Origin: Desulfovibrio sp.
GTDB taxonomy: Bacteria > Desulfobacterota > Desulfovibrionia > Desulfovibrionales > Desulfovibrionaceae
Length of the DNA stretch: 64,000 nucleotides
Direction: 5' to 3'
Assembly (NCBI RefSeq): GCF_047607245.1
Contig: NZ_JASGDK010000070.1
Span: forward strand, 11,610 to 75,609
This document shows, in pieces, positions 5,982 through 48,364 of the stretch (positions within the stretch are counted from its first letter, which is position 1; each line of letters starts with the position of its first letter). The notes beneath the pieces were generated by a model. It made no database searches. It was given only the letters and a program-made list of their open reading frames with translations, and was not told the origin of the DNA. The position numbers and the translations under genes were made by a program.

Positions 5982-5983
5982 AA

Positions 5984-7546: not shown

Positions 7547-7734
7547 GCAACGGCTCCTTGTGTCCGTATAAATTTTAAAATCTATGAACAATTTCCGTAA
7601 TGCAGCGCTTTGGCTGGCGTCTTGCGCCGCCACTGCGGATTGCCGGAGTTGTCTGTTCTCTGCCAGAACCTGAACTGTATGCAGAGCCGTCAGCGCCGGG
7701 AAAGCCCGGGCGCTGCACAGCTTGCGCAAATAAA

Positions 7735-15508: not shown

Positions 15509-16372
15509 TCAGCGCCGGGAGGCTGCCATAGCCTGAAGCCTGCGAATGCGCTCTTCCAAAGGCGGATGCGTGCTGAAAAGATTGGCCATGCTGCTGTGAG
15601 CGAACATAGGCGACACGATGAACATCTGCTCGGTGCTAGGATTGCCTTCACGCATGGGAATTCGCCCGCTGGCGGCCCCAAGTTTGGCAAGAGCGCCTGC
15701 CAGCGCCAAGGGCTGGCCGCAAAGCTCTGCCCCTGTATCGTCAGCAAGATACTCCCGCGAGCGCGAAATAGCCATCTGCACAAGGCCAGCAGCCATAGGG
15801 GCCAGCAAAGCCATTGCCAGCGCCGCAATGGGATTCACGCCGCCGCCCTCGCCGTCACGGTTGCCGCCGCCAAATATGGCCGTGAACTGGAAGATATTGG
15901 CCATGGTCACAATGGCCGAGGCCATAACCCCGGCGATAGTCTGAATAAGAATATCCCTGTTTACAATATGTCCTATTTCGTGGGCCACCACACCGCGCAG
16001 TTCTTCGGGCGGCAACAAACGCATGAGGCCTTCAGTCACCGCCACCACCGCATTTTCAGGATTACGCCCGGTGGCAAAAGCATTGGGGGCTTCTTCGGGA
16101 ACCACGCAGACGCGTGGTTTGGGAATGCCAGCGTTGTAGGCCAGCTCATCAACAATTTTATGCAGATATGGAGCTTCTTCCGGGGCCAGTTCACGAGCCC
16201 GGTACATAGAAAGCACAATCTTGTCCGAGTACCAGTAACTGCCCACATTCATGAGCAGGGCCATGCCGAAGGCGATGATAATGCCCGTGCGCCCGCCAAG
16301 CAGGCCGCCAAGCACTATGATGATGCCCGAAAGCAAACCCAGAAGAAGAACTGTCTTGATCTGGCTGGTCAT
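15509..16372 (-). CDS. htpX: Zinc metalloprotease HtpX (M48 family)
   Basis: Two N-terminal TM helices, the HEIGH zinc motif (VVAHEIGHIVNRD) and a C-terminal REYLADD motif. GAGGAG RBS. Confidence 0.9.
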   Translation of the reverse strand: MTSQIKTVLLLGLLSGIIIVLGGLLGGRTGIIIAFGMALLMNVGSYWYSDKIVLSMYRARELAPEEAPYLHKIVDELAYNAGIPKPRVCVVPEEAPNAFATGRNPENAVVAVTEGLMRLLPPEELRGVVAHEIGHIVNRDILIQTIAGVMASAIVTMANIFQFTAIFGGGNRDGEGGGVNPIAALAMALLAPMAAGLVQMAISRSREYLADDTGAELCGQPLALAGALAKLGAASGRIPMREGNPSTEQMFIVSPMFAHSSMANLFSTHPPLEERIRRLQAMAASRR

Positions 16373-18527: not shown

Positions 18528-19948
18528 GATTCTTTCCAACACCTGTAATTATTGATGAAAACACGCGCCAAGCGGTCATTGTTGGCTTCGGGATCAAACA
18601 TATGGGCCGCCAGCAGCCTGCCGTTACGGGCAAGGCTGGCTGCCAGGGCTGAATCGTTGGCCAGCAGGGCGATAGCGTTGGCCAGCGCTTCGGCGTCGTG
18701 CTGCGGCACCGCCAATCCGGTTTTACCGTGCCGCACCACCTCTGGCAAAGCGTTGACCGTGGTGCTGACTACGGGCAGGCCATAGGCCAATGCCTCGATA
18801 ACGGTATTGGGGATGCCATCGCGCCGGCCCGACGCATGCACCACGCAGGGCGCGGCAAAAATATCATGCTCTTTGAGGAGCTTGGGCAGCTCATTGTGCG
18901 AAATAAGACCGGGCATGCTCACGCGGGCTTCCAGTCCCAGTTCCTTACGCAAACGGGTCAACTCGGCCTGCATGTAGCCGAGGCCCATCACGGCTCCGCC
19001 GCCGCCCGCCAGAGTGAGGGTAAAGTCCAGGCCACGGTCTTGCAGCAAGCCGCAGGCGCGGAGCAATACGTCAAAGCCCTTGGTAACGTCAAACCGTCCA
19101 AGAGCCAGCAGGCGCACAGGGCGCTTCATGGGAACGGGAGAGGCCGAAGCAGGCACTTCATCCAGGCGCAGAAAAGAAGGATCCGCCTCACTGGAGCAGT
19201 GGGAGCCCGGCGCGTCGAGCGCGCCAGTATGGGCGGCAGCGGCTGTGGGCGTGACCGTTTCGTCTTCCAGTGGCGGCAGGGTCAGCCCGTTATACACCAG
19301 CTCAACTTTGCCCTTGGCCTGCCCACGGTCAAAATTCTCTATCCGCGCCTTGTCCGCGCCGTTGTTGGCACGCACCAGAAAAGCGGCGTCAAGCTTTGCG
19401 CCTAGGTCCGGGTCCGCTGGCTCAAGATTGTCGCCCCTGGCGCATGTGGCAAAGGGAAGCCCGGCGATGCTGCCTGCAACCCAGGCAGCGGTTGCAGTGC
19501 CGCGCGGCCAGGGCGCGTAGATCATATCGATGCCCGCTTCTTTGAAGCGCCGGGCCAGATACACCCCTGCGCAAAAAGCCCAGAGGTTTTCTCCCATTGT
19601 TTCAACGCAGCGCCAACGACGGAACATAGTACGACGGAAGAGCCTTCCCAGGCGTAGCGGGTGCGTGCAGAACTGGCGCAGAACTTCGGCCAAGATGGCA
19701 AAAACTGCTTTTGTGCCCAATGTATGGGTCTGCTGGGCCGCCGTGCGCATTTCAGTGGAGCAGTGGCACAAGTTGGCCCCGTAAAGACTGAACACCGAGA
19801 GCGGAAGGCGCTTTCTGAGCCCTTGTACTTCGCGGAAGATAAAGGGCTGTGTGAACAGGGGGTACCACAGCAACACGCAGGCCACATGAGGCAGCCCAGG
19901 GGCGAATGCCTGCGGGGAAACGGACTCGCTTGTCTTGCTTTCTGTCAT
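18515..19948 (-). CDS. GT4-family (GT-B) glycosyltransferase, paralogue 2
   Basis: C-terminal domain RLLALGRFDVTKGFDVLL...RRDGIPNTVIEALAYGLPVVST...GKTGLAV. The N-terminal half is paralogous to 21071-22417 (VLLWYPLFTQPFIFREV vs VLLWFPLSSETFIFREV). Confidence 0.8.
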   Translation of the reverse strand: MTESKTSESVSPQAFAPGLPHVACVLLWYPLFTQPFIFREVQGLRKRLPLSVFSLYGANLCHCSTEMRTAAQQTHTLGTKAVFAILAEVLRQFCTHPLRLGRLFRRTMFRRWRCVETMGENLWAFCAGVYLARRFKEAGIDMIYAPWPRGTATAAWVAGSIAGLPFATCARGDNLEPADPDLGAKLDAAFLVRANNGADKARIENFDRGQAKGKVELVYNGLTLPPLEDETVTPTAAAAHTGALDAPGSHCSSEADPSFLRLDEVPASASPVPMKRPVRLLALGRFDVTKGFDVLLRACGLLQDRGLDFTLTLAGGGGAVMGLGYMQAELTRLRKELGLEARVSMPGLISHNELPKLLKEHDIFAAPCVVHASGRRDGIPNTVIEALAYGLPVVSTTVNALPEVVRHGKTGLAVPQHDAEALANAIALLANDSALAASLARNGRLLAAHMFDPEANNDRLARVFINNYRCWKESCVE

Positions 19949-20033
19949 AACTCACTCCTGAGCGTCTGCCAGGGGGCAAACTCACAGGTTATATTATTTG
20001 GAGTCGACCATACCGAATTGCACGCGGCGCAAG

Positions 20034-21074
20034 CTAGGGAGCTTCTTGTGGCGGATACGCCCAATCGCCGCATTTCGCGCCGCTGCACTGCCGCAATTGT
20101 GCTGCGCTTTCAGGGGCTTGAGGACCCAAGACTTCCCTCAATTGGTCCATAGTCAGGCTGCGCACTTCCCAGCGGGATGAGAGCCAGTCTGTCCAGGCCA
20201 GTATTTTTTTCATAAGTGTGTCCACAGCGCTGGCATCAGGCAGATGGGGCGCACCGCCCGGCATCATTTCTGAAGAATGCCAGGTGAGAGACAATACCCG
20301 CCCTCCGCGGGCCACGAAAAGTCTGGTCACAGCCTGCATGGCCCACAGAGGATGATAGACGGGCAACAAACTCAACGCCCCCCAGTTCTTGAAGCCTGGC
20401 CGCAAGCCCGGAGCCGTTCTGCGCAGCAGGCCCGGCAAGGGTTGCAAAAGAGGCGTCACGCTAAGGGGAACTTCAAAAATACGCTTTGGCCCAACGGTTA
20501 CCCAATAAGGATTGCACGGGGCGTCAAAGTGATCTGGCCCCGCATGAGGCGTGGCTCCACAATGCAGCGGGCGTACCGAGGCGTCTACCTTGATTCCGGC
20601 CTGGGCCAACAGGGGCCAATGGTTTCTGTGCAGATCCCACCGCCCCATACGAAAAGAAGTCAGGGGCGCGGATTGAAATTCCTGTCCGGCAGCCATGAGT
20701 TTTTCAAGCTTGGCGGCCATAAGAAGGTCGGGCACGGCTGCGGCGGGTACACTGGATGCATTGTCGGCAAGGGCGGCGTCTGCGCCCGGCCCGTCAAGAG
20801 TCAGAGGGGGCGTGTTCCAGTGGTGCAGGTGCGCGCCTATTTCAGCGCCGTGTCTGTCGCGCAGCCCCGCCAATACGCGCCGTGAAGGCTCGTCGGCCAG
20901 CACGCTGTGCGCGCAGAAAAGCGTGGGGCGCACGCCGCGCTCACACAGGGGATCAAGCCGCCCAAGGCTGCCTGTATTGACCGTTGAGAAGCCTCGCCGG
21001 GCATACTGGCCGCCAAACAGCCCTTCTTCTTCCACATCCAGGCTGACAGCAAGATAGAGCGTAGGCCGGCTCAT
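20034..21074 (-). CDS. Polysaccharide-deacetylase-like (CE4/WalW-like) protein
   Basis: LAVSLDVEEEG (Asp/Glu metal motif) and IGAHLHHW (His pair). The ATG at 21074 overlaps the upstream TGA (ATGA). The track start 21149 is over-extended. Confidence 0.6.
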   Translation of the reverse strand: MSRPTLYLAVSLDVEEEGLFGGQYARRGFSTVNTGSLGRLDPLCERGVRPTLFCAHSVLADEPSRRVLAGLRDRHGAEIGAHLHHWNTPPLTLDGPGADAALADNASSVPAAAVPDLLMAAKLEKLMAAGQEFQSAPLTSFRMGRWDLHRNHWPLLAQAGIKVDASVRPLHCGATPHAGPDHFDAPCNPYWVTVGPKRIFEVPLSVTPLLQPLPGLLRRTAPGLRPGFKNWGALSLLPVYHPLWAMQAVTRLFVARGGRVLSLTWHSSEMMPGGAPHLPDASAVDTLMKKILAWTDWLSSRWEVRSLTMDQLREVLGPQAPESAAQLRQCSGAKCGDWAYPPQEAP

Positions 21075-22417
21075 GCTTCCTCTTTTTCCGTGAACACATG
21101 ATCCAAGTGGGAGGATTGCCCTTGCTGCATCCTGGCAGCTCGGGCGCATTCATCCACATACAGATCATAAACCGCCGCGATGTTTCGCGCGGGGTCAAAA
21201 AGCTTTTCAACATGGGCGCGCCCCGCCTCAGCCATTTTCAGGGCAGCATCCCGGTCAGACACCATACGGCGCACGGCATCTGCCAGAGCCCGCGGATCGC
21301 GTTGCGGCACAAGCAGCCCGGTTTCACCGTCAATAACTACCTCGGCTATGCCGCACACATCGGTGGCAATAACTGGCATCCGGTGAGAAAGCGCTTCCAT
21401 GATAACATTGGGGATGCCATCGCGATCTCCGTTAGTGTGCACCACGCTGGGCATGATGAGCATGTCATGGTCCAGCATGAACGCGCAGATCTTGTCGTGA
21501 GGAATAAACCCCGGCATATCGACAACCTGTGTAAGCCCCAGATCGTCCCGCATTTTGACAAGCTTGTGATGCCACCTGCCGTCGCCCACCAGAGTCAGGG
21601 TCACAGGCACGTTTTCACGCCGCAGCCGTGCCATTGCCGTGAGCAATTCGGGAAAGCCCTTGGTGCGCGCAAAGCGTCCCACTGCAAGCAACCTGTAGGG
21701 AGCCTGCATGGGCATGGCGCACTGGCCGCGCGGTCGGAAGGTAAGACTATTGTAGATGGCGTGTACTTTGTTCGTGGCGTCAGGAGGGCAGAACTTGCAC
21801 AGCCACTGTACATTGGTGCGGTTATTGGTGCGGACGAAAAGCGCGTCGCGCGATTTTTCCCGCAACAGACCATCTTCAGGATAAATATCTCCGGCACGCC
21901 CAGTGAAGGCAAAGGGGATGCCCGACATGCGCGAGGCTACCCAGGCTGCAGTTGCCGGCCCATTGGCCCAACCCGCATGGATAAGCTGCACCCCGTCCTG
22001 CCGGCACTGCTCGGCCAGCAGGAATCCCGCCAGAAAACACAAGGTGTTCTCTGCAATAGCCTCAACATTGCGCATACGGCGAAAAAGCCCTTCACGCATG
22101 AGCCGCCACACCGCCCCCGGCTTCTGCCACAAGGCACGCCCGAAGGCAGCAAGGATGCGGCTGAAGGCCTTGATGCCCATGCGGCGGACAGGACCGTCAA
22201 AGGCGTGCATTTCTTCGCTGCACCCCTTGAGATTTTCGCCATACATGCTGTACGCATACACAGGCAGGCCACGCTGTCTGAGTTGTACGACCTCACGAAA
22301 AATAAATGTCTCAGAAGACAATGGAAACCAGAGAAGCACATAGGCGATGACCGGCGGAACACTCTGCCGACCGTTTTCCTTTCCCGCTTCCGTGGCAACG
22401 CCACTGGTTAAAGACAT
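21071..22417 (-). CDS. GT4-family (GT-B) glycosyltransferase, paralogue 1
   Basis: RLLAVGRFARTKGFPELL...DRDGIPNVIMEALSHRMPVIATDVCGIAEVV.DGETGLLV. Confidence 0.8.
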   Translation of the reverse strand: MSLTSGVATEAGKENGRQSVPPVIAYVLLWFPLSSETFIFREVVQLRQRGLPVYAYSMYGENLKGCSEEMHAFDGPVRRMGIKAFSRILAAFGRALWQKPGAVWRLMREGLFRRMRNVEAIAENTLCFLAGFLLAEQCRQDGVQLIHAGWANGPATAAWVASRMSGIPFAFTGRAGDIYPEDGLLREKSRDALFVRTNNRTNVQWLCKFCPPDATNKVHAIYNSLTFRPRGQCAMPMQAPYRLLAVGRFARTKGFPELLTAMARLRRENVPVTLTLVGDGRWHHKLVKMRDDLGLTQVVDMPGFIPHDKICAFMLDHDMLIMPSVVHTNGDRDGIPNVIMEALSHRMPVIATDVCGIAEVVIDGETGLLVPQRDPRALADAVRRMVSDRDAALKMAEAGRAHVEKLFDPARNIAAVYDLYVDECARAARMQQGQSSHLDHVFTEKEEA

Positions 22418-22474
22418 ATCGGTCTCCGCAGCAAACGAGAGCCGGGCCTTATGGCCCGGCCCTAAATGCTGTTT

Positions 22475-23794
22475 TTATTCGCCCAGGTATTCTTCGGCGT
22501 GTTCGCTCTTGTATTTTTCCACAATGGCCTGTGCCTTGGGAATTTCTTCCTTCACGGCATCCAGAGCCTTGCGGATGTGCTCTTCGGTATGGGCGGCAGA
22601 AAGGAAGAAGCGCAGCCTGTCGGTGCCTTCTTTCACTGCCGGGAAGGTAATGGGCATGACATAGATGCCACGCTTGAAGAGCGCGTTGGACAGGAAGCCT
22701 GCAACCATAGGATCGCCCACCATAACAGGCACGATGGCGTAGCCCTGAGCCGCGCCTGTGTCCAGACCGATGCTGGCGGCGTAATCCACAAAGAACCGGG
22801 AAATGCCCTGCAATTTATGCACACGTTCCGGTTCGCGCAGCATAATGTCCAGCGCCTTGTGGCAGGCCACGGCGATCACGGGGGGCATACCCACACTGAA
22901 AACAAAACCCGGCGAACCGTACTTCAGAAATTCCACCAGTTCGTGCTTGCCAGCGATAAACCCGCCGCAACCGCACATGGACTTGGAGAGCGTGCTCATC
23001 CACATATCCACTTCATTGGCGTCAATGCCGAAATATTCGTGCGCGCCACGCCCGGTCTTGCCAAGCACGCCCAAAGAATGGGCTTCGTCAACCAGCAGCA
23101 TGCAGTCGTACTGCTTTTTCAGCTGGATGATGCGGGGCAGATCAGGAATGTTGCCGTCCATGCTGAACAGGCCTTCCGTAACGATAATGGCCCGCTTGTG
23201 TTCGGCGCGCTTGGCCTTGAGCATTTCCTCAAGGGCATCGCAATCGTTATGATTGTACGAGTAGCGCGCGGCGTGCGACAGGCGTGCGCCCTGCACCAGC
23301 GAGTTGTGGGCCAGGCCGTCATGAAAAATGGCGTCGCGGTGGCCGAGCAGAAAGCCGAGGGTGGACACGTTGGTGGCATGCCCGCTCACGTAGACAATGC
23401 AGTCTTCCACGCCATAAAGGTCGGCGAAGGCACGCTCAAGCTCACGGTGCGGCGGGCGCTCGCCGCCCACAAGGCGGCTGGCTCCGGCGGACGTGCCGTA
23501 AACGGTGGCGGCGCTGGTGACGGCCTCGGTTATTTCCGGATGGGCGTTAATGTCCAGATAGTCGTAGGTGGAAAAGTTCAGATATTCCTTGCCGCCAATG
23601 AGTGTGGTAGCCTTGGCTGCACGCTCGTGGCAAAGAAAAAGAGGATTTTCCATCCCCATCTTGGCTCCCATCTCCACAAGCCGGTCAAAGGCGAGCTTGG
23701 AACGCATGCGGCTGAAGCCGCCTGCGGAGCTTTCTGTAGCGGCAGTAGTTGATGCCGCCTCTTGTCCAGCCTGACAGGAATGGTCGTTCTTCAT
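22475..23794 (-). CDS. PLP-dependent alpha-oxoamine synthase (SPT/BioF/KBL/CqsA superfamily acyl-thioester:amino acid C-acyltransferase)
   Basis: Motifs YLNFSTYDYL, GASRLVGGE, SGHATN, SMDGN, VDEAHSLG and STLSKS (PLP Lys271 codon at 22984-22982). AAGAGGA RBS before ATG 23794. Low-complexity 29-aa N-terminal extension. Confidence 0.85.
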   Translation of the reverse strand: MKNDHSCQAGQEAASTTAATESSAGGFSRMRSKLAFDRLVEMGAKMGMENPLFLCHERAAKATTLIGGKEYLNFSTYDYLDINAHPEITEAVTSAATVYGTSAGASRLVGGERPPHRELERAFADLYGVEDCIVYVSGHATNVSTLGFLLGHRDAIFHDGLAHNSLVQGARLSHAARYSYNHNDCDALEEMLKAKRAEHKRAIIVTEGLFSMDGNIPDLPRIIQLKKQYDCMLLVDEAHSLGVLGKTGRGAHEYFGIDANEVDMWMSTLSKSMCGCGGFIAGKHELVEFLKYGSPGFVFSVGMPPVIAVACHKALDIMLREPERVHKLQGISRFFVDYAASIGLDTGAAQGYAIVPVMVGDPMVAGFLSNALFKRGIYVMPITFPAVKEGTDRLRFFLSAAHTEEHIRKALDAVKEEIPKAQAIVEKYKSEHAEEYLGE

Positions 23795-24142
23795 GCCTAA
23801 TCCTCTTAAATTTGTCCAAAAAATGCACCGGCCCGCAGCCCTGCAACAAGCAGCCGGACAGAGGGCGCAACTTTGTAAGGATTCAGTATAGCCAAACCGT
23901 CGAGCTATGGCAAGTGCGTAATATCAAATCCTCATCAACCCGCCACAGCGGCAGCTACTGTGCATTTCAGGGCTTTTACAACCGCCTTTCAACGCAAATG
24001 CGCACGGCGGCATTCCGCTGCCGTGGCCTATTTTCTGCCCGGCTTCTGGACAAGAGAATCGATATACCCTAGAATACCGCCCTTAGCCGATATATGCCGC
24101 TTCGGCCCAATCGATCAACCGCGCGCCGCAGGCCCGAGTTTT

Positions 24143-27100
24143 ATGCAGCAAGACCCTGCCCCAGCATACGGCACTTCGCACGGCAAGCCCTGCGCAACGG
24201 ACAACGCCGTCCTTCAGGACGGACTGCTTGTTGTGTCGCCTCCTTGCGCCATCCTTTCCTGCCCTGCTCCTGAAAATCCGGCCTCTGCCGAATCCCGCGC
24301 TTCTTCAGGCGAAATATGCGCCCAGGCTCTGGTTCGCCAGTGCCTTGACTGGCTCAAGCTTACCGGAAACCCTGGCCCCGTCATGCTCTGGCTCTGCTGG
24401 AACGAGTCCAGCACTCCGGCCCATCTGGCCCAATCCCTGAGTCTTGCTGCGGAAGGTCTGCAAAATCTCTGGCGCATCGGTCCGGTACGCCTGCAGTTTG
24501 AATCCTTCCGCCCCGGCCAGATTCACGAGGCCGAAAAGGTTCTGCGAGCGGCCCTTGATCAAGGCACGGATGCAGCAAAAAGCATTTACCCCTGCATGAC
24601 CAACGAGGCGGCCCGCCCAGATACTATGGGTGTGAGCATGCCGCAGTGCCCCAACTACTATAATTCCGATGCGAATAGAGCGCTGGGCGACGAAGAACCC
24701 ATGCGCCCGCAAGCCGGACGCGTGCCCACCATTCTTTTGCTGGATTTTTTGGCAGATAAAACTCCGAACCTGCAGTGCCAGCCTCTTCTGCTGAGCCTGC
24801 CTGCTCCTACGCCTCCGTGCTGCGACATGCTCAAATGCCGCAAGAATCCACAGCAGGTGACAGAGGAGCCCCGGCCCGAAACCGCGCCAGCCCTCTGGCA
24901 GCCCTGCAACCTTGCAGCCGAAGCAAAGCATATCCAAGCAACTGCTACAGACACCACAAAAATGCCCGATTATCAAAATTTGCCCGAAGAACTTATTCTG
25001 GATGGCGTACGCTACGCTGACCTGCCCCAAGACGGCATTATGTGGCGTATGGGAACCACCAATCCCCTATGGCGGCAAGACCTGCTCTCGCTGCCGCACA
25101 ATCCCGATGCAGCAGCCCTGGCGAGTCTTGAAGGGCGCGGCATCTGGCTGGCCCCCAAGACCGATGCGCCGCCCCTGGCAGTCATGTGCTGCGGCATGGG
25201 CTCGGTCTGGCCGGGCATGGGCCGCGAACTCTACGATAATTTCCCTGTGGCGCGCGCCGCGATGGACCGCATCGCCGCTGTTGCCGATTGGGACATACTT
25301 GGCCTTATGGACGAAAAAGACGTGGAAAAGGTCAGCCCCACACGCTGGCAGTCTCCTTACACGTTTATGCTTGAGTTTGCGCAGTGGAGCATACTTTCTT
25401 CACTGGGTCTGCAGCCCTCGCTCTTCTGCGGGCACAGTCTGGGCGAGCTGATTGCCCTGTGCTTCAGCGGCATCTACACGCCCGAGGTGGCCTGGCATAT
25501 TCTTGATACCCGCGCCATCCACATGGCCGAACTGGAAGCTGCTGCCACCCGTGAAATGGGCATGATGGCCGTACACGCCAACGCTGAAATCATTGATGAA
25601 GCATGCGCTGCATGGCCCGCCCTCTACGTTTCCAACTACAATACTCCGCAACAATTTATTCTGAGCGGACCGCGCGAAGTATTGATGGAAGCCCGCAAAA
25701 GCCTGCGCAAGCGCCGTATACCTGCCATCGTGCTCAACCTGAATCTGGCCTTCCATCATCCAAGCATGCGTGTGTTGCGCGACCTTTCGCTGCGCCGCCT
25801 CAACGCGCTTGAGATGCGCGCTCCCCGCCACCCCATGCTGAGCGGCACCACCACGGATTTTTATCCTGACGACCAGCCATCCATCTGCCTGCAAATCGCC
25901 GACCTGGATGAAAATTCCGTCCGCTGGACAGAATGCGTGCACACGACATGGCGCAGAGACGGCATCCGTCACTTTCTGGAGCTGGGACCGCAGGATACAC
26001 TGTGCAGTCTTGTCAGCGACACGGAACCCCGGGCCCTTTGCCTGCCTGCGGGACGCAAGGGCAAGGAAGTGGAAGGCATGCGTCAGACATGCGCCCGCCT
26101 CTATGCGCTGGGACACTTGCGCAAAAATTCTATCCGCACACGCATCGCCGATGTTCGCGGCGGCAAAGATGCTGCCGCAGCAGCGCGTATGCCGCTTCCG
26201 CATTGTGGGCTTGTGCCTGTGGATTCCCCCGACTGCGGCGCAGGCTGCGGGACATGTTCCACTTCTTCCTGCGGCATAACCGCCACAGAAACCTCGCCGG
26301 TAAAAACAGATGCCGTGGTTTCTGCCCCTGTTTCCGGCGCAGACGCTGCGTCCGCCCCTGTGAAAGCTACGGCTTCCGTATCATCCGCAGCCGCCTTGCG
26401 CGTGGTGCTGGATGTTCTGGCCCGCGCCTGCGGCCGCCCCGTGGAAGAACTGCGGCCAGACCTTGACCTGCGCTACGATCTTGCCCTGCGCTCCAGCCGT
26501 TTTCCCCTTATTATTCAGGAAGTGGAAAAAGCGCTGGATATTACCGTCAACTTTGAAGATCTGCTGCAGGTTTCCACAGTGGGCGATCTCGCTCGCGTTC
26601 TGGGCGCAGTCAATTTTGGCGAAACGGCCGATTCCGAAAAATCCGGGGCGGCAAGTCAGGTGGCAGCTCGCCAGACAGCGCTGGTTCATGCTTGCGCGCC
26701 GCTGTGCCGCTTCAGCCCCATGCGGGGGAGTGCGCAAAGCGAACACACGGCAAAGGCCGGCAGTGGGGGGGCGACACATGCCCTGCTGCCGCTGCCTCTG
26801 GACCCCTGCGGTCAGGGCTTGCCCATCCGGCGAGGGGATATTCTGGCCCTTCTGTTTTTTGAACCTGATCTGCTGCCCGCTCTCATGAGCGGCCTGGCAC
26901 CACTTGGATGCGTGCTGGCCGTGCCGCGCGCCCAGGTTGAAGCATGCGCCCCGCTGGCCAAGGCGGGCAGCCGCATTGTGCCCCTGAATATTGACCTACA
27001 CGCCCCTCGGAATGCCGCAGAGGCACGTTCGTTGGCCGAAGATACCAGCGCGGCCCTGAGCGATCTGGCTAAAAAAGAGGGCAAGGTTGACGGCCTGCTT

Positions 27101-28528
27101 TTTGTGCCTGCCGCACGTTCCGAAAAAGGAGAAAAGGAAACCGGCCCGGCACTTTCAGCCGCCGCCTTTGCCTCCGCAGACATGCCCGAGTTGCTGAGCG
27201 CGGCCATGCGAGTCACCGTGCCGCACGGGCTGCGCTATGCCTGCCTGTGCAGTCTGCTGCAACCCACGGCTGAAAACCTGCGCGGCGATGGCCCGCTGGA
27301 AAAGCGCCTTGAGGAACTGGGGCAGGAAGCTGGCGTTGCCACCCGCGCCATCCGGCTTCTGGAAAAAAATCTTCGCGCAGGACTTAACGACTGGGGCGAT
27401 ATGCTGGCCCGTGAACTTTTACGCGGCACCGCCTGCCAGGTGCTGTGGGTACGGCCCACGGCCCTGCCCGCTTTTGCAGCGCCCGCTGACCAGGCAGACA
27501 GCTGCTCCCACGCATCTGCTGCGCAAGAGAAGAAGGGGCAAGGGCTCATCATCACGGAAAAACCGCGCTTCTATCCCCTGGTTTTTTCCGATCCGTATCC
27601 GCCTTACCGGGCCACTTCCACGCTTTTTCAGGGCTGCTGCCATTACTCGCGGTTTGCCGATACCGATCTGGCCCTTCATGGCGGCCAACCTTGTAATACC
27701 CTTGACGGTACGCCCTGGTTACCTCCAAGCCGTGCCCTGGCGGCCTTGCTTGAAGCCTCAAGCTTATGGCTTCCCTGGCTAACAGCCACTGGTTTTTCAG
27801 ACCTGCGGTTTTATGATCTTCCCCAGCTGCCGCCCGGCATCACCCGCGAATGCAGGGTCGCTATGGAGGCAGAGCCCTGGCTCATGCAGGACGGCGTAAT
27901 GACGCGCCAGTGCCGCGGCACTCTGGACGTACGCGGACTTTCAGCCAATGGCAGACATCTTGAGCGCTATGCGCCCGTGGCTGAAGGCATGACCATTCTG
28001 GCCGCGGCCAACGGGCAGGTGCCGCCCCTGTGGCCTGATGAAAATGAACCCCCGCGTGCGGAACAAATTCAACAGACCTTAGATACCGATCTTTTTTATA
28101 ATTCTGTAGGCTTTGGCGCGCCCTGGCGCATGCTACGCGAGTTTACCGTTCTGCCTAATCACAGATATGCCGCGCTGTTGGACCATTCGCATACAAGCAT
28201 TGCCCCCGAGGGCAATAAAGGCTATACTGACGTACTGCATGTGGTGGAGGGAATGGCGCAGGCCGCGTGGATGGCAATTGCCCAGGAAGCCGGAGAGGCA
28301 GAGGCGATTGCCGCTGTCATACGAAACTGGCATCTGCAGGCTGCGGGATTCATACGTTTTGGGGGCGAAAGAGGCAAAGGACCGTGGCTCATAAGGATGA
28401 GACGTTCTTGGTCTGCCCCAAATCTGTTGCGCTTTGACGGCCAGGCCGTTGACGAACGCGGACGCGTCTTTCTTACTCTCCATCATCTAGAGTTTAACCG
28501 GCGGGACACCGGAGCCGCCGCGCTTTAG
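24143..28528 (+). CDS. Multidomain PKS-like protein without ketosynthase: unknown N-domain, acyltransferase (AT), carrier-protein-like domain, unknown middle region, double-hotdog dehydratase-like domain
   Basis: AT: GMGSVWPGMG...GHSLGE (Ser codon 25436-25438)...LAFHHP. ACP-like: LDLRYDLALRSSRFPLIIQEVE (26492-26494). DH-like: LALHGGQPCNTLDGTPWLPPS and YTDVLHVVEGMAQ. The start is uncertain: ATG 24143 is preferred, and the track's GTG 23960 adds a basic, non-protein-like leader. Confidence 0.8.
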   Translation: MQQDPAPAYGTSHGKPCATDNAVLQDGLLVVSPPCAILSCPAPENPASAESRASSGEICAQALVRQCLDWLKLTGNPGPVMLWLCWNESSTPAHLAQSLSLAAEGLQNLWRIGPVRLQFESFRPGQIHEAEKVLRAALDQGTDAAKSIYPCMTNEAARPDTMGVSMPQCPNYYNSDANRALGDEEPMRPQAGRVPTILLLDFLADKTPNLQCQPLLLSLPAPTPPCCDMLKCRKNPQQVTEEPRPETAPALWQPCNLAAEAKHIQATATDTTKMPDYQNLPEELILDGVRYADLPQDGIMWRMGTTNPLWRQDLLSLPHNPDAAALASLEGRGIWLAPKTDAPPLAVMCCGMGSVWPGMGRELYDNFPVARAAMDRIAAVADWDILGLMDEKDVEKVSPTRWQSPYTFMLEFAQWSILSSLGLQPSLFCGHSLGELIALCFSGIYTPEVAWHILDTRAIHMAELEAAATREMGMMAVHANAEIIDEACAAWPALYVSNYNTPQQFILSGPREVLMEARKSLRKRRIPAIVLNLNLAFHHPSMRVLRDLSLRRLNALEMRAPRHPMLSGTTTDFYPDDQPSICLQIADLDENSVRWTECVHTTWRRDGIRHFLELGPQDTLCSLVSDTEPRALCLPAGRKGKEVEGMRQTCARLYALGHLRKNSIRTRIADVRGGKDAAAAARMPLPHCGLVPVDSPDCGAGCGTCSTSSCGITATETSPVKTDAVVSAPVSGADAASAPVKATASVSSAAALRVVLDVLARACGRPVEELRPDLDLRYDLALRSSRFPLIIQEVEKALDITVNFEDLLQVSTVGDLARVLGAVNFGETADSEKSGAASQVAARQTALVHACAPLCRFSPMRGSAQSEHTAKAGSGGATHALLPLPLDPCGQGLPIRRGDILALLFFEPDLLPALMSGLAPLGCVLAVPRAQVEACAPLAKAGSRIVPLNIDLHAPRNAAEARSLAEDTSAALSDLAKKEGKVDGLLFVPAARSEKGEKETGPALSAAAFASADMPELLSAAMRVTVPHGLRYACLCSLLQPTAENLRGDGPLEKRLEELGQEAGVATRAIRLLEKNLRAGLNDWGDMLARELLRGTACQVLWVRPTALPAFAAPADQADSCSHASAAQEKKGQGLIITEKPRFYPLVFSDPYPPYRATSTLFQGCCHYSRFADTDLALHGGQPCNTLDGTPWLPPSRALAALLEASSLWLPWLTATGFSDLRFYDLPQLPPGITRECRVAMEAEPWLMQDGVMTRQCRGTLDVRGLSANGRHLERYAPVAEGMTILAAANGQVPPLWPDENEPPRAEQIQQTLDTDLFYNSVGFGAPWRMLREFTVLPNHRYAALLDHSHTSIAPEGNKGYTDVLHVVEGMAQAAWMAIAQEAGEAEAIAAVIRNWHLQAAGFIRFGGERGKGPWLIRMRRSWSAPNLLRFDGQAVDERGRVFLTLHHLEFNRRDTGAAAL

Positions 28529-28596
28529 CGCGTCTCCGCCACAGTGACAGTGACTATACCAACGCGCAAAGTGCGCGACATTGTAAAGGGTGCCTG

Positions 28597-30063
28597 ATGC
28601 CGCATAACACACGTCCTCTCTTTTCAGCGCGGTCATATCTGCCGCTGCTGCTCGTTATGACCCTGTTTTTCTCAGCATGCGCCTCAAACAAGGCGGGACT
28701 GAAATCTCCGGAACTTCCGGCCAAGCACTGGCTGGAAGAGGCACCCGGCGTTCCGGTAGAAAACAAGGCCAAACTTGAAGCGGCAGTGCCCAACCTGTAT
28801 GATCCCAGCAAGGTTTTCACCTACGAGGACTGCGTCTTTCTGACCATTCAGCAGTCGCCCCTTCTGGTCAACAGCGCGGTAGATCTGGAGATCAAGCGCG
28901 TAGCCCTTACCGACGCCGTGTGGAAGTACCTGCCCGAGCCCCGTATGACCATGCAGGTCACCAACAACCTTACGCGCAACAACATGGACCACAAGGACAC
29001 CCCTGGCGACTACGGGCGTACCAAGTTCACCGTGGGTTTCTATGCGGCCTTCCCCAATCCTGTGGCCACCTATTTTGAGCACCAGGTGCAAAAGGCAATG
29101 GTCAATCTGGCCATCTCCACGCACCGCAAGGCTGTGGGCGAAGCCATCTACAAGATCGCCCAGGCCTATCTGCAGCTGCAGGCGCAGAAAAAAATCGTCA
29201 AGGTTCAAAAAGAACTGCTGCCCATCGGCAAAGAACTCATAGCCTACTGGCAGCAGGTGGAGTCCGTAGACGGCCGCCAGGGGGTTTCCCTCAACTTGGC
29301 CATGCAGCACCAGCGTGAGCTTGAGCTGATGGTAGAGCAGACCAAGATGAAGGAAGTCATGCAGCTCACCCAGCTGAAAATACTCGCGGGTGTGGACCCG
29401 CAGCACAAGCTGGACGTAGACACGTCAAGCGCTGACGAAATTCTGAAAGGCTTCAATGGCCGCAGCCTCAAGTGGGACGACCGCTGGAATACCACTGAAG
29501 ACGATTTGCTTTTGCGCGGCCAGATCAAGCTGGGTGACTACAATATCATGGTCGCCTGGGCTCAGTATCTTCCAAACATGAGCATCGCCGTCAACAACAG
29601 CCCGCCAGCGGGCCAGTACCAGCCTGCCAGCGGCAGTGAAGACACCTTCCTGCATCTGAACTTTGACTTTCCCCTGCTGGACTGGGGACGCCGTTACCGT
29701 GGCGTGCAGACGGCACGCATGATGAAGGCGCAGGCTTTCCACGAAATGGCCCGCAAGCGCACAGATTATTCCAACAAGTGGCTGCAGGCGGAACAGAACG
29801 TGGCACTGGCTGAAACCGAGCTCAAAATCGCGAAAACGCGTTTTGACACTGCGGCCATGCAGTACAAGGAAGCCCACATTTCCTTCAACGAAGGCATTGC
29901 GGATCTGCCCAACGTAGCCGACAGGCAGGAAGCTATGGTGCAGGCCCAGATCGCTTTTATTCGGGCAGAACTGACCTGTGAACTGGCTCAGCTTGAATGG
30001 ATGTACATTTCCACCTCGCTTCAAGAACGTTTCCTCGGCATGCCCGCCAAGGAGGTGCTGTAA
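28597..30063 (+). CDS. Outer-membrane efflux protein (TolC/OprM-like) lipoprotein
   Basis: Signal peptide and lipobox (LLLVMTLFFSAC). Size and repeated helical/beta layout fit outer-membrane factor proteins, with long heptad-rich stretches. Confidence 0.7.
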   Translation: MPHNTRPLFSARSYLPLLLVMTLFFSACASNKAGLKSPELPAKHWLEEAPGVPVENKAKLEAAVPNLYDPSKVFTYEDCVFLTIQQSPLLVNSAVDLEIKRVALTDAVWKYLPEPRMTMQVTNNLTRNNMDHKDTPGDYGRTKFTVGFYAAFPNPVATYFEHQVQKAMVNLAISTHRKAVGEAIYKIAQAYLQLQAQKKIVKVQKELLPIGKELIAYWQQVESVDGRQGVSLNLAMQHQRELELMVEQTKMKEVMQLTQLKILAGVDPQHKLDVDTSSADEILKGFNGRSLKWDDRWNTTEDDLLLRGQIKLGDYNIMVAWAQYLPNMSIAVNNSPPAGQYQPASGSEDTFLHLNFDFPLLDWGRRYRGVQTARMMKAQAFHEMARKRTDYSNKWLQAEQNVALAETELKIAKTRFDTAAMQYKEAHISFNEGIADLPNVADRQEAMVQAQIAFIRAELTCELAQLEWMYISTSLQERFLGMPAKEVL

Positions 30064-31010
30064 TGGCGCCCTATTCACGCATCGCCTCTTCGGCCCGCAA
30101 GTGCGCGCTAGGCATTGCCGTGGCATTTCTGGCCAGTCTGACTCTTGCCACCGCTGGCTTTGCGGCCGACAGCGGAAAAATTGGCGTGACCATTCTTACA
30201 GGCAAAGTCGTGACGACAGTCACCCGGGCCGTGCCCATGCCCTTTAGCGGCGTGGTGGACTCAGTACTGGTCAAACCCGGCGAAGCAGTTGAAGAAGGCG
30301 CGCCTCTCATGCGCTACCACCTATACGAAGATGCGGAACGCGCCCTGCAACGGGAAGTCATGCAAGGCCCCAGCACAGAAGGCCTCAACGGGCAGGTGCT
30401 GGACCTTGAGCGCAGACTTGCTGAAACCATTGCCCAGCGTAACAAGGCCCGTCAGCTTGCAGCTTCGGGCCTGGGCTCGCGTCAGGCTTCCGGACGTCTT
30501 GAAGAAGACGTGAGCTCCCTGCAACGCCGCATTGAGCTCACGCGTACTACCATAAAGAAAGCTGAAAACAGCTTTGCCATCCGCCTCAAGGAACTGAGCA
30601 GCTATTTCGGACAGGAAATCAAGGAAGGGGAAATTCTGCCAGAAACCCTGACCCTGACCTCGCCTCTCAAGGGCTATGTGCTATCGCTGGATGCCACGCT
30701 CAACCCCGACACTCTGCTTCCGGCGGGCAGCGTTCCCATCAGAGTGGGGCAGCTTGACCCTGTGCTTATTCAGGTGCCCGTCTACGAAGCCGAAGTCAGC
30801 GGCATCAGCGAGGGCGACAAGGTTGCGGTAGAAATCCCCTCTCTCAACAACAAGGTCTTTACGGGCAAGGTTACAGAAATATCTTGGGTTTCCAGCGATA
30901 TGAGCGTGTCCAACCCTTCCTACTACACTGTGGAAATCACCGTGCCCAACCCGGATCTGGAGCTTAAACCCGGCTTCAAGGCTGTTGTGCGTTTCGGGGG
31001 CGGCAGGTAA
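30063..31010 (+). CDS. Periplasmic adaptor / membrane-fusion protein (HlyD family)
   Basis: The start overlaps the upstream stop (TAATG). N-terminal anchor/signal, a split lipoyl-like domain (GVVDSVLVKPGEAVEEGAPLM ... LTSPLKGYVLSL), a central coiled coil and a C-terminal beta-barrel (GFKAVVRF). Confidence 0.75.
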   Translation: MAPYSRIASSARKCALGIAVAFLASLTLATAGFAADSGKIGVTILTGKVVTTVTRAVPMPFSGVVDSVLVKPGEAVEEGAPLMRYHLYEDAERALQREVMQGPSTEGLNGQVLDLERRLAETIAQRNKARQLAASGLGSRQASGRLEEDVSSLQRRIELTRTTIKKAENSFAIRLKELSSYFGQEIKEGEILPETLTLTSPLKGYVLSLDATLNPDTLLPAGSVPIRVGQLDPVLIQVPVYEAEVSGISEGDKVAVEIPSLNNKVFTGKVTEISWVSSDMSVSNPSYYTVEITVPNPDLELKPGFKAVVRFGGGR

Positions 31011-31019
31011 AGCCCCCGC

Positions 31020-32435
31020 ATGAAGCTCAAGAGCATTCCCCGCAGGCTCGGTTACATTCTAGGCGCGCAGTGGACGCGCGACCTGGCCTGGACAGCCTTT
31101 ACCATTCTGCTTGCCCGCCGCAGCCCGGATATTATGGGGCAGGTGGTCTTGGCCCTCACTTTCGGCTATCTGGTTAAGACCATTGCTGATGTGGGTCTCA
31201 ATGATTTTCTGTTGTCTACCTTTGCCAGGCGGGAAGGCCGGCCACGGGCTTTGCTGGGCGAAGTAACATGGCTCAAGCTTACCGTGCTGGTGCTGGCTCT
31301 GGCTGTAACATGGCTGGTAACCGGATGGCAGAATTACAGCCCTGAGCTGCGCCTTATCGTGCTGTGTATTGCCGCAGGGCTTGGCCTTGACGGGGTGAGT
31401 GACTCATTTTTCGCGCTATGCCAGGCTCGAGGCCGACAGGATGTGGAAATGCGCATCCGGGTGCCCTCTGCCCTCATCGGCATAGGCTTCGGTATCGCCT
31501 GCGTAGTTATGGGCGCGCCGCCCATTATCATCGCACTTTACAAACCCATTGAATCTATACTGTGCATCATTTTTGCCCTCACAGCGCTTGGCCGCAACCC
31601 GCTGGCGGGTGTTGGCCGATCTGGCATGCTCGATCTGGCGCGGCAAATGAAGCATGGCCTTATCTTTACCTGCATGGCCGCCTGCGCCATGTTCTACAAC
31701 AAAATCAACGTCATTTTTCTCAAGCAGTACGGCGGCAACGCCGATGTGGGCGGGTACGGAGTAGCCTGGGAGACCGTGGAAGGGCTTTCGGTTCTGGTAT
31801 CAAGCGCACTTCTGGGCAAGGTTATTTTTCCTCTGCTGGCAAAATTCTGGCAGCAGGATAAAAATGCCTTCCGGCAGCTTGCTGGCCAGACTGCCCGGTC
31901 TTTGTGGGCCGCCTCCTTGCCCATCATCTTTCTCATTTGTGTGGAAAGTGACCGGTTTCTGCCTTTTATTTACGGCCCAAGCTATGAGAGCGCCGTTCGG
32001 GCGCAGCAATTGCTGACGCCTTGCCTGGCTACTGCCTTTCTGCACAACCTTGCAGCCTATGCTATGATAGGCATGCGCCGCCATCGCCTTCTGCTGCTTT
32101 TCTACGTCAGCGGGCTTATTCTTAATATTATCTGCTGCCTGACGCTTATCCCGGCCATGCCTCTTGAAGGTGCGGCGCTGTCTCTTACCATCACCAAGGT
32201 TTGGGTTGCCATCCTTACTGTGGGCTTTTTTCAGTGGACAACCCGCCCGATGAGTGCGGCACAATGGCTGCTCATGCTGGCTACCGCTGGAGTAAGCATT
32301 GCGTTGTGGTGGGGCACAGGCAAAGTTGCCCCTCGTGAAGTTGCTGAAGGCGTGGGGCTTCTTCCTCTGCTGGCCTTGTTCTGGTGGTGGCGGCCTCCCC
32401 CGCCATTTGAAAAAAAGACGCCGCAAGCTCAATAG
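31020..32435 (+). CDS. MOP-superfamily flippase (Wzx / polysaccharide biosynthesis protein-like, ~12 or more TM)
   Basis: A polytopic membrane protein of 471 aa whose N-terminal region (GAQWTRDLAWTAFTILLARRSPDIMGQV) resembles oligosaccharide flippases. It starts 9 nt after the adaptor stop. Confidence 0.7.
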   Translation: MKLKSIPRRLGYILGAQWTRDLAWTAFTILLARRSPDIMGQVVLALTFGYLVKTIADVGLNDFLLSTFARREGRPRALLGEVTWLKLTVLVLALAVTWLVTGWQNYSPELRLIVLCIAAGLGLDGVSDSFFALCQARGRQDVEMRIRVPSALIGIGFGIACVVMGAPPIIIALYKPIESILCIIFALTALGRNPLAGVGRSGMLDLARQMKHGLIFTCMAACAMFYNKINVIFLKQYGGNADVGGYGVAWETVEGLSVLVSSALLGKVIFPLLAKFWQQDKNAFRQLAGQTARSLWAASLPIIFLICVESDRFLPFIYGPSYESAVRAQQLLTPCLATAFLHNLAAYAMIGMRRHRLLLLFYVSGLILNIICCLTLIPAMPLEGAALSLTITKVWVAILTVGFFQWTTRPMSAAQWLLMLATAGVSIALWWGTGKVAPREVAEGVGLLPLLALFWWWRPPPPFEKKTPQAQ

Positions 32436-33523
32436 TGAAGACGCAACTCTTCTGAATTGACCCTGTCTTGCTGCCCAATCATCTCAGTGAATTGTGGCTT
32501 CTGGGTCACCGTTTTCAGTATAAATACCATAAGCACCCCTGCGAATATCACCCTTCTTCGCTCAAGGCGAAACTGACTTGTTTTCAGCCTGAACCCAGAG
32601 CAGAGTCGCCTCACTGGCCTTTCGTAGCTCTTTTTTCCAAGGTCTCCGCAGACCAGATACCATTTCGGTGTTGAATTATTCTGGCTTGCGTCTGCAGTTT
32701 TGGAAAATAGTGCGGACTACCGTTGGAATGCTTCACCGTTCAAAACTATCATTCTGCCCAAAATGCAGTTTTGCCAAAATCCATTTACCATTGCAGCACG
32801 CTGTACACTCGTTCCACGTCAGAGCCTTTGACCATTTTCAAAGTTAACATTGCTCTAGACCCATCCGGATTGTTGTCTACCGTGAAAAATCTTCGGTGAC
32901 ATTGCCGCACGATTTTTTAGATGCAGATGCAGTGCCTACTTCTGCCGCCGTGCCCGGCCTCAGGCGATCTATCTCTCTAATTCTAATGCAACGCAGGAAT
33001 AAATGATGGCGTTTCGCGGCGCGCTGGGAAACCACTGAGCGAAGTTAGGAAGCTCCCGAAGCTAAAGCCACGCAGCACTTGTTGAACCGCGGAATATGGA
33101 GATCCAGTGGGAGTGCAGGAGAGCTCGGAAGGGCACTGCCCCCAACAGGCCCTTATGCCGCACGCCGCGCAGGTGGATAAAGTGGCACTAATAAAAACAG
33201 AAGACATTGAAAGTGTTACCACTCGGCAAGAAATTGCTTCGACCGTCACTACACAGACGTAAAGCGTTGCAGCGCAGTAAACTAAGCTTGGCTTAAGTCG
33301 ATGCCGCATAGGCTTAACACTCTGCAATATTACCAAACTGCACTCAACCCGCATACATAAGAACACAGCCTGTTCCACGCAGTCCCCACTGTATTCGGTA
33401 GGCTCACGTTCTCGTCACCGGCTGACAGCCAGGCGACCTCCAAAGACAACAAAAAATCCATAATTACGCCAGCATTTCAAAGTGATACCGCGCTTGCCCT
33501 TCTGTCATATTCCGGTCTTGGCA

Positions 33524-33553
33524 TTGACGAGGGTAATTAGCTGCGCGTAGCAT
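33524..33553 (+). promoter_or_regulatory. Candidate sigma70-type promoter for the FeS/membrane pair
   Basis: TTGACG (33524-33529), an 18-nt spacer, then TAGCAT (33548-33553), about 50 nt upstream of ATG 33604. This is a pattern match only. Confidence 0.3.
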
Positions 33554-33603
33554 ACAAAATCAGCTTGCCTCAGTATGGGGCACAATCGTGCACAAGGATT
33601 TTC

Positions 33604-47592: not shown

Positions 47593-47678
47593 TTCCCTAA
47601 AACTTTTATTTTGCGCCATGCCGGCGCTTGTGCCCTACGGGAATTGACATTTTGCGCCAAGGGAATAAGCTTTATGTA

Positions 47679-47725
47679 ACGGGGATGGAGTTCCCCTTGA
47701 ACCGCATTTGCTGATAACTCCTGCC
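47679..47725 (+). promoter_or_regulatory. Fluoride riboswitch aptamer (crcB RNA motif)
   Basis: ACGGGGAUGGAGUUCCCCUUGAACCGCAUUUGCUGAUAACUCCUGCC closely parallels known crcB-motif aptamers (GGCGAUGGAGUUCGCC-AUAAACGC...GCUAAUGACUCCUAC). It has the P1 helix, GGAGU/ACUCC pseudoknot strands, AACCGC and CUGAU elements. It lies upstream of crcB. Confidence 0.8.
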
Positions 47726-47754
47726 ACTGCTTCGGCGTTGTCAGGTATTTTTTT
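47720..47754 (+). terminator. Riboswitch expression-platform terminator
   Basis: CCTGCCACTGC-TTCG-GCGTTGTCAGG (two mismatches) followed by TATTTTTTT. Its 5' arm overlaps the aptamer 3' strand, as expected for fluoride-controlled antitermination. Confidence 0.6.
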
Positions 47755-47789: not shown

Positions 47790-47964
47790 CATTGGGGAGT
47801 GCCATGCTACGAGCCGCAGCGTCACCTTCGGATTCGCCTGAAATATCCGGCGCATATTTTCAACATATTGTAATAATAAAGCCATCGCCAGTACTGTGCG
47901 CCAAGAGTACACATCAGGCGCAACCAGTTTGGATGCAAGGCAATACGGGCAGGAGCGCTTTACC

Positions 47965-48354: not shown

Positions 48355-48364
48355 GAGGTTGCCC

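Follow-up and report, generated by a model that had tools for sequence, protein, structure and literature searches.

A predicted MOP-type flippase encoded in one operon with a TolC-like outer-membrane factor and an HlyD-type adaptor in Desulfovibrio: a candidate route for glycoconjugate export

Introduction

Which inner-membrane protein does an adaptor serve when the gene directly behind it encodes a flippase? This question is raised by a stretch of DNA of 64,000 nucleotides from Desulfovibrio sp. (contig NZ_JASGDK010000070.1, positions 11,610 to 75,609; hereafter the window, in whose numbering all coordinates without a locus name are given). The window carries three consecutive genes on the forward strand, which encode a TolC-like outer-membrane factor (OMF), an adaptor or membrane-fusion protein (MFP) of the HlyD type and a predicted flippase with the MOP fold. 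MFPs link porters of four families (MFS, RND, ABC and AAE) to OMFs, and the exporters of the PST family work with OMA/OPX proteins of the Wza type (PMC2850547). A second overview of tripartite systems covers ABC, RND and MFS systems together with AaeAB (PMC8277102). A first-pass annotation of this DNA had recognized the three genes and had considered a conduit from a MOP flippase to a TolC-like protein an unusual architecture. The block is made up as follows:

28597-30063, forward strand: OMF gene, 488 aa (TolC family, probable lipoprotein)
30063-31010, forward strand: adaptor (MFP) gene, 315 aa from an ATG whose first base is also the last base of the preceding TAA
31020-32435, forward strand: gene of the predicted MOP/PST flippase, 471 aa

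The analysis presented below leads us to consider it likely that the OMF, the adaptor and the flippase serve one and the same pathway. Moreover, the gene order and the architecture of the adaptor suggest a conduit in which the adaptor forms the bridge between flippase and OMF.

The three genes and their products

The two junctions within the block were read directly from the DNA and confirmed the tight coupling that had been described before. At the first junction (ctgTAATGgcg) the ATG of the adaptor gene uses the A of the OMF stop codon TAA, which amounts to an overlap of 1 nt. At the second, the TAA at 31008-31010 and the ATG at 31020 leave a gap of 9 nt. The identification of the encoded proteins as an OMF, an HlyD-type adaptor and a MOP-type protein was borne out by Pfam, where the matches of all three lie above the gathering cut-off. 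NCBIfam yielded only sub-threshold matches for the same proteins, which indicates that they are divergent members of their superfamilies, outside the named equivalogs.

The OMF matches the Pfam family OEP in two stretches (2.9e-24, 86 bits, cut-off 22). Its scores for the NCBIfam families TolC (type 1 secretion, TIGR01844; 35.6 bits versus a cut-off of 225) and NodT (lipoprotein, TIGR01845; 19.4 bits versus a cut-off of 210) are far too low for membership, and a sequence search of the PDB gave no match at E<=0.01. Taken together, these results place the protein among the divergent OMFs. It is probably a lipoprotein, as the sequence LFFSAC at the end of its N-terminal signal resembles a lipobox. 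Its orthologues are 54-99% identical in the 120 related loci described below.

The adaptor was assigned by Pfam to HlyD_D23 (1.3e-16, 61 bits, cut-off 30) and HlyD_3 (4.3e-12, 47 bits, cut-off 22.2). The NCBIfam models RND_mfp, DevB, EmrA and MacA were all matched below threshold, the DevB family (TIGR02971) with 35.4 bits at a cut-off of 129, and the PDB sequence search returned one weak MFP match. The AlphaFold2 model (pLDDT 82) comprises an N-terminal transmembrane (TM) helix (residues 9-33), a beta-barrel, a lipoyl domain and an alpha-hairpin (89-134/140-182) with about 45 residues per helix. In the model, a linker of only about 10 residues leads from the TM helix into the first strand of the barrel, and the chain stops at residue 315 after the last barrel strand; the membrane-proximal domain present in the adaptors of RND and MacB pumps is absent from it. 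The best Foldseek matches were MacA (top), EmrA and MexA/AcrA, with E-values of about 1e-15 to 1e-12. Around the tip of the hairpin, 27 homologues (61-88% identity) all share L132, G136-L137-G138 and S139, and 26 of them also have K128. The spacing of K128, L132 and S139 may resemble that of the Arg-Leu-Ser motif at the hairpin tips of AcrA and MacA. Among the matches listed for the adaptor, identity does not fall under 61%, and all named ones come from Desulfovibrio.

In general, the domain make-up of an adaptor correlates with its cognate transporter, and adaptor and inner-membrane pump are usually encoded together in one operon, though the OMF can come from another system (PMC8277102). An adaptor that lacks the membrane-proximal domain suits an inner-membrane partner without periplasmic mass, and the predicted flippase is such a protein.

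The flippase matches Polysacc_synt_3 (4.5e-18, 66 bits, cut-off 23) and Polysacc_synt (4.2e-10, 40 bits, cut-off 28.2) in Pfam, and weakly, below threshold, the Wzx_EPS, MOP flippase and MurJ models of NCBIfam; a PDB sequence search found no match. Its AlphaFold2 model (pLDDT 92, pTM 0.89) has 14 helices connected by short loops, and no periplasmic domain. The top 50 Foldseek matches in the PDB are all MurJ, WzxE or MATE structures. The TM-scores for MurJ and WzxE range from 0.70 to 0.79 (0.76 for MurJ 7wax on query length, 0.79 for WzxE 9g9n on target length), as compared to 0.45-0.63 for MATE, and TM helices 13 and 14 were found to be MurJ-like in the same comparison. Two more specific assignments were considered and rejected. 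A role as MATE exporter does not agree with the lower MATE TM-scores and the lack of a MatE match at E<=0.01, and a role as MurJ lipid II flippase does not agree with the score for TIGR01695, which is 20.5 bits versus a cut-off of 235.55 and concerns residues 265-421 only. The combined profile and structural evidence (Pfam, AlphaFold2, Foldseek) classifies the protein encoded at 31020-32435 as a genuine MOP/PST member, that is, a PST/Wzx-MurJ-like flippase by prediction and not a MATE pump or a member of another known pump family. The first-pass annotation had named such a classification, by hidden Markov model (HMM) and structure, as a check, and would have taken membership of a known pump family as a refutation; the outcome here is not of that kind.

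Absence of conventional pump genes

Pfam scans of the larger open reading frames (ORFs) of the window revealed no ABC, RND or 14-TM (DHA2-type) MFS pump, and tblastn revealed no ABC ATPase in the 64 kb. Nor was a MacB_PCD/FtsX or ABC_tran gene present. The sole MFS genes in the window encode 12-TM types and lie 16-19 kb off, at 48710-49885 and 51304-52596. The earlier statement that no conventional pump gene adjoins the block thus holds. The same picture emerged from the related loci: no ABC nucleotide-binding domain (NBD) was detected by tblastn in up to 10 kb on either side in about 150 related loci of the Desulfovibrionaceae, and an RND or 14-TM MFS gene was not found in the related loci either.

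Conservation of the arrangement

Whether such triplets recur had been left as a question for comparative genomics, and within the family Desulfovibrionaceae they clearly do. We collected 160 loci by scanning genomes and metagenomes once each, and searched these loci by tblastn with the proteins of the window. The best 80 matches of the genome scan were all from Desulfovibrionaceae; the distant loci were obtained by the metagenome scan and by looking up loci one at a time. The order OMF-MFP-flippase on one strand was observed in 120 of the 160 loci, with flippase identities of 61-99%. The carriers include D. piger ATCC 29098, D. desulfuricans, D. falkowii, Ca. D. kirbyi and the endosymbiont Ca. 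D. trichonymphae, in whose reduced genome of 1.41 Mb the block is intact. The 1-nt overlap between the OMF and MFP genes is kept in most of the 120 loci, and the gap between the MFP and flippase genes has a median of 9 nt (<=30 nt in 98 loci). Considering this constancy of order, strand and spacing, the arrangement is not a matter of chance.

The only large interruption among the 120 loci was observed in a single rumen metagenome-assembled genome (MAG), where a 550-aa ORF on the reverse strand (L059:7787-9439) is inserted between adaptor and flippase. Presumably this ORF encodes a transposase of the IS4/IS1634 type, which is how its sequence reads to us.

Genomic context and associated enzymes

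The block forms the tail of a single operon of four forward-strand genes (24143-32435). A promoter-like site is present at 24047-24075, ahead of the likely start of the first gene, and a weak terminator-like hairpin is found at 32494, after the flippase gene. Upstream and divergent from the operon lies a series of genes that, together with the operon, make up a cluster spanning 16599-32435; the list below gives them with the first gene of the operon and the gene beyond the left edge:

24143-28528, forward strand: acyltransferase-acyl carrier protein (AT-ACP), first operon gene; the ORF opens at 23960, with the likely start M62 at 24143
22475-23794, reverse strand: alpha-oxoamine synthase (BioF/KBL/SPT-like pyridoxal-phosphate enzyme), Aminotran_1_2 1.5e-46; divergent from the operon
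21071-22417, reverse strand: GT4 glycosyltransferase, Glycos_transf_1 1.5e-34; conserved neighbour
20034-21149, reverse strand: conserved protein, here called X371; start probably internal, near 21074
18515-19948, reverse strand: second GT4 glycosyltransferase, Glyco_trans_1_4 9.3e-31
16599-18542, reverse strand: AsnB-type glutamine amidotransferase, Asn_synthase 7e-106 and GATase_7; left cluster edge
15509-16372, reverse strand: HtpX-like protease with the motif HEIGH; marks the left boundary of the cluster

The AT-ACP protein matches Acyl_transf_1 (5.4e-30, aa 410-688) and PP-binding (1.9e-07, aa 815-880). The alignment with 13 orthologues begins at M62, and GHSLGE with S493, the Arg downstream of it (R518), AFHH and the ACP residue Ser845 are conserved in these 13. 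There is no ketosynthase, and a region resembling a ketoreductase (KR) is degenerate, as the nucleotide-binding motif GGGRGI is missing from it, also in most Desulfovibrio orthologues. Outside the AT and ACP domains no Pfam match was obtained, and for the C-terminal 343 aa no PDB match either; this C-terminal domain is nevertheless conserved. The orthologues vary in length between 811 and 1522 aa. One of them (L067:3601-7437) has an intact KR domain (Pfam KR 1.5e-29) in the position of the degenerate region, and the N-terminal extension of about 280 residues in the window (24143-24990) is poorly conserved, is shared with the closest relatives only and has no family match.

The alpha-oxoamine synthase scores under the bioF, Kbl and SPT equivalog cut-offs and is about equidistant from the structures of AONS/KBL and of SPT. 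The possibility that it is a genuine biotin BioF was rejected, as it falls below the bioF equivalog cut-off and is equally near to KBL and SPT. X371 has no match in Pfam or NCBIfam, and its orthologues (44-89% identity) travel with the cluster.

This context is conserved along with the triplet. The AT-ACP gene directly precedes the OMF gene nearly everywhere, and the genes for the BioF-like enzyme, GT4, X371 and AsnB flank the block in most loci. In some loci, such as L117 and L040, L041, L044 and L053, the biosynthetic genes have moved to the other side of the block and yet are still adjacent to it. The one exception with respect to AT-ACP is a MAG of a goat-rumen member of the Desulfovibrionaceae (L073:5800-6869), where the triplet is kept and only about 1 kb lies between the BioF-like gene and the OMF gene, a spacing from which it follows that the AT-ACP gene is absent there.

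Neither in the cluster nor in the Pfam scans of the larger ORFs of the window did we find an initiating phosphoglycosyl transferase (PGT), a Wzy polymerase or ligase, PCP or OPX, although these could lie elsewhere in the genome. Together with the presence of two glycosyltransferases only, this argues against an ordinary polymer route of the Wzx/Wzy type. The option that the cluster is a horizontally acquired island was rejected, since its GC content (0.57-0.62) matches that of the window.

Two stretches outside the cluster deserve mention. On the reverse strand, 8 kb past the cluster edge, the region 5331-8649 encodes a HAD hydrolase, a hexapeptide acyltransferase, a CTP_transf_3 cytidylyltransferase and an NAD-dependent epimerase/dehydratase, a sugar-nucleotide block that could be a source of activated sugars for the GT4 enzymes. 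On the other side, between the flippase gene and that of a Tat-signal 4Fe-4S protein, lies about 1.1 kb of lower-GC DNA without a convincing gene (32436-33564); its single ORF of 131 aa has no Pfam match and the stretch has no Rfam match. In most related loci the distance between these two genes is only about 15-400 nt.

Proposed mechanism

How could the products of the operon work together? In the mechanism that we favour, the three proteins would constitute a proton-driven MOP-MFP-OMF exporter, with the adaptor physically joined to the flippase in the inner membrane, a reading to which we give an even chance. A fuller version, which we put forward somewhat more tentatively, holds that the proton- or ion-driven MOP/PST transporter is bridged by the adaptor to the dedicated TolC-like lipoprotein so as to bring a glycoconjugate derived from a lipid or from ACP directly from the cytoplasmic side of the inner membrane to the cell surface, with MFP and OMF taking the place of PCP and OPX. 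Such an exporter would represent one more class of tripartite machine. The contact between flippase and adaptor, the source of energy and the nature of the substrate are predicted here from the make-up of the cluster and its proteins.

The substrate would be a glycoconjugate of small size made by the neighbouring enzymes, and an amphipathic molecule of the glycolipid type is the most likely candidate. The alpha-oxoamine synthase and AT-ACP (with KR where this is intact) may form an amino-keto or amino-alcohol acyl unit, by a route that would resemble the way in which the synthesis of long-chain bases begins. Next, the two GT4 enzymes would add sugars, and the AsnB-like enzyme and X371 could modify the product. 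The 14-helix MOP protein would move the product over the inner membrane by alternating access at the expense of an ion gradient, without any ATPase. Proton coupling has been reported for Wzx (PMC3774195). The TM-anchored adaptor is envisaged to oligomerize around or beside the flippase, and the tip of its hairpin to dock on the TolC-like lipoprotein encoded in the operon. In this way the product would reach the outer membrane or the medium and none would be left in the periplasm.

Evolutionary limits and alternative explanations

Several observations weigh against a physical flippase-adaptor-OMF machine, and they mostly concern the places where the gene linkage ends. In a neighbour-joining tree all linked flippases fall in one clade, outside of which the triplet was not found; in effect the linkage thus counts as a single event in evolution, retained ever since. 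In the basal sister clade (termite-gut metagenomes, flippase 62-64% identical) the flippase gene directly follows an LPG_synthase_TM gene, and no OMF, MFP or AT-ACP gene was found beside it. Further away, an exhaustive representative search recovered the flippase subfamily at 33-42% identity and then generic PST proteins; 13 distant loci of the subfamily (36-42% identity) lie in glycosyltransferase-rich clusters, and in 12 of these 13 neither OMF nor MFP was found by Pfam, tblastn or custom HMMs. The custom HMMs, derived from the OMF and MFP of Desulfovibrio and applied to the 13 distant and 8 basal sister loci, detected one partial OMF only. It occurs in the exception, L165 (16327-21367; 38% flippase identity, environmental metagenome), where the flippase is encoded with GT21, GT4 and radical-SAM genes and a run of genes for ZnADH, a BioF-like synthase, a MacB-type permease, an ABC ATPase and the OMF lies 5-6 kb from it. 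The gene order in L085 (14378-17452) is the same as far as that locus reaches. In the lineage of L165 and L085 the energized partner of the OMF is thus an ABC pump and not the flippase. Moreover, known PST/MVF flippases leave their lipid-linked product in the inner membrane, from where its entry into an adaptor tunnel is hard to see. Finally, we looked for positions that are at least 90% conserved in 47 linked flippases and never shared by four close unlinked ones; this signature consists of 8 scattered positions and contains no periplasmic patch, a result that by itself is not evidence either way.

The basal sister loci share a characteristic organization. In L136:2783-5193, L137:4313-6729 and L139:5951-8331 the LPG_synthase_TM (MprF-flippase-like) gene is tightly fused to the flippase gene, and the surroundings consist of housekeeping genes (NusA/RimP and an MqnC-like radical-SAM protein).

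L165 and L085 show a second thing as well. A TolC-type exit recurs there, in a second and distant lineage, together with this subfamily of flippases and an alpha-oxoamine synthase, so that the exit over the outer membrane is a real part of such pathways. With their glycosyltransferases included, these loci represent an ABC-driven version of the same theme.

The presence of a MacB-type pump with the OMF in that distant cluster keeps alive the main alternative, namely a process in two steps. The flippase would act alone and flip a lipid-anchored intermediate to the outer leaflet of the inner membrane, and adaptor and OMF would use a pump encoded elsewhere, for instance an ABC transporter of the MacB/DevCA type, to extract and expel the product. 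The three genes would then belong to one pathway, while their products form no common complex. We consider this unlikely for the Desulfovibrio operon, although it accounts for a number of facts. L165 and L085 show exactly this division, with the flippase among the glycosyltransferases and the MacB permease, ATPase and OMF apart; in other lineages the subfamily does without an adjacent MFP or OMF, and the linked flippases bear no special signature. The top structural match of the adaptor is MacA and its sequence has weak similarity to the DevB family. The MurJ-like TM helices 13 and 14 would fit a lipid-tailed substrate as well. Such a substrate, staying in the membrane, is what the groove function of these helices in MurJ suggests. 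On the other hand, the membrane-proximal domain of MacA-type adaptors contacts the periplasmic domain of MacB (PMC8277102), and the adaptor encoded here has no such domain. An ABC NBD is lacking from the surveyed surroundings of the related loci and from the window, adaptor genes normally adjoin that of their inner-membrane partner (PMC8277102), and the reduced endosymbiont genome has kept the block with no pump gene beside it. Should the two-step process nevertheless apply, the locus would still define a compact and undescribed glycoconjugate pathway, be it a mechanistically ordinary one.

A further alternative is that the MOP protein constitutes the inner-membrane channel of a GT4-driven synthase of a polymer or oligomer, which works without polyprenol carrier and in which MFP and OMF replace the TPR/porin exit. 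PelG has been proposed to be such a synthase channel together with PelF. The presence of GT4 enzymes and a possible modifying enzyme in a cluster devoid of PGT and Wzy is compatible with this, and glycan synthases that work with HlyD-like and TolC-like proteins have been documented (PMC8892547, PMC13438883). Yet the flippase matches Polysacc_synt_3 and not the PelG family, the cluster holds neither a receptor for cyclic di-GMP nor a PelD/E-like gene, and AT-ACP and an alpha-oxoamine synthase fit badly in a plain polysaccharide pathway, which makes a Pel-like synthase improbable. The weakest reading, that the genes are neighbours by descent only (OMF and adaptor for an unrelated efflux, the flippase for O-antigen or exopolysaccharide, the operon a frozen ancestral accident), is likewise improbable, for although the linkage is monophyletic and conserved gene order among members of one genus or family, taken alone, proves little, the translational coupling was retained across 61-99% identity, the block was kept in a reduced genome, it migrates with the biosynthetic genes after rearrangement, and an insertion sequence between MFP and MOP was seen in one MAG only.

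Relation to known systems

The proposed MOP-MFP-OMF exporter has much in common with AcrAB-TolC, MacAB-TolC, EmrAB-TolC and HlyBD-TolC. As in those systems, a TolC-family OMF is combined with an adaptor built of hairpin, lipoyl and beta-barrel domains, and the adaptor gene lies tight to that of an inner-membrane transporter, here with all three genes in one operon. The TM anchor and the absence of a membrane-proximal domain are moreover shared with the adaptors of pumps without periplasmic domains. Unlike the tripartite and type 1 systems, the operon described here provides a MOP/PST flippase, which is outside the four porter families listed for MFPs (PMC2850547), and no ATPase, and the predicted substrate is a glycoconjugate and not a drug or protein.

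A close parallel would be DevBCA-HgdD, the heterocyst glycolipid exporter of Anabaena, where an MFP and a TolC homologue likewise serve the export of a glycolipid made by polyketide-synthase-like enzymes and a glycosyltransferase. The difference is that DevC/DevA, the MacB-type ABC pump, is absent here and that the adaptor scores far under the DevB cut-off. In addition, the operon includes its own OMF gene, while that of HgdD is located apart from its partners (PMC8277102). The Wzx/Wzy systems, in turn, share with the proposed exporter an inner-membrane step by a PST-family protein and dedicated partners that span the periplasm and the outer membrane; unlike Wzc and Wza, these partners are an MFP and an OMF here, and there are two glycosyltransferases only. 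The flippase itself resembles MurJ in having 14 helices and its fold also matches WzxE, but its identity to them is 10-17%, and for neither of the two is an MFP or OMF known as a binding partner or as the product of a linked gene.

An MFP-TolC duct with a non-classical inner-membrane partner is in itself not without precedent. The cyanobacterial cellulose synthase has HlyD-like and TolC-like partners (PMC8892547), and BgsA/BgsB act with TolC in the export of mixed-linkage glucan (PMC13438883). Such systems, like Alg8-Alg44, export sugar polymers, and their partner is a processive GT2 synthase channel, unlike the MOP transporter and GT4 enzymes found here. The list of MFP partners in the first-pass annotation (ABC, RND and MFS) was therefore incomplete, as the AAE/PET porters (PMC2850547) and the glycan synthases (PMC8892547, PMC13438883) have to be added. 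Its view of the architecture as unusual can be upheld as far as the MOP partner is concerned, which would be new, and has to be tempered in view of the glycan synthases. Full-text searching retrieved neither a PST/MOP-MFP-OMF system nor any account of this cluster of Desulfovibrio, which does not prove that the literature contains none. The novelty would lie in an MFP-OMF duct with a MOP inner-membrane component, which is restricted to one lineage and stably conserved within it.

If the proposal is right, a MOP-adaptor-TolC machine would add a new class of energy coupling to the tripartite exporters, and it would offer an answer to the question how a glycoconjugate that has been flipped but is still anchored in the inner membrane could be released from it with no ATPase involved. 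The carriers are host-associated sulfate reducers. Considering the conservation of the system across Desulfovibrio from the gut and the termite gut, including D. piger and D. desulfuricans, these bacteria probably have in common a conserved product that is secreted or exposed at the surface.

Other features of the window

A fluoride riboswitch (RF01734, 53 bits) was detected on the forward strand at 47672-47730, upstream of a gene for a CrcB-like fluoride channel. The CrcB-like gene is followed by a small ORF (the two reading frames being 47896-48354 and 48347-48682), which is an ordinary arrangement.

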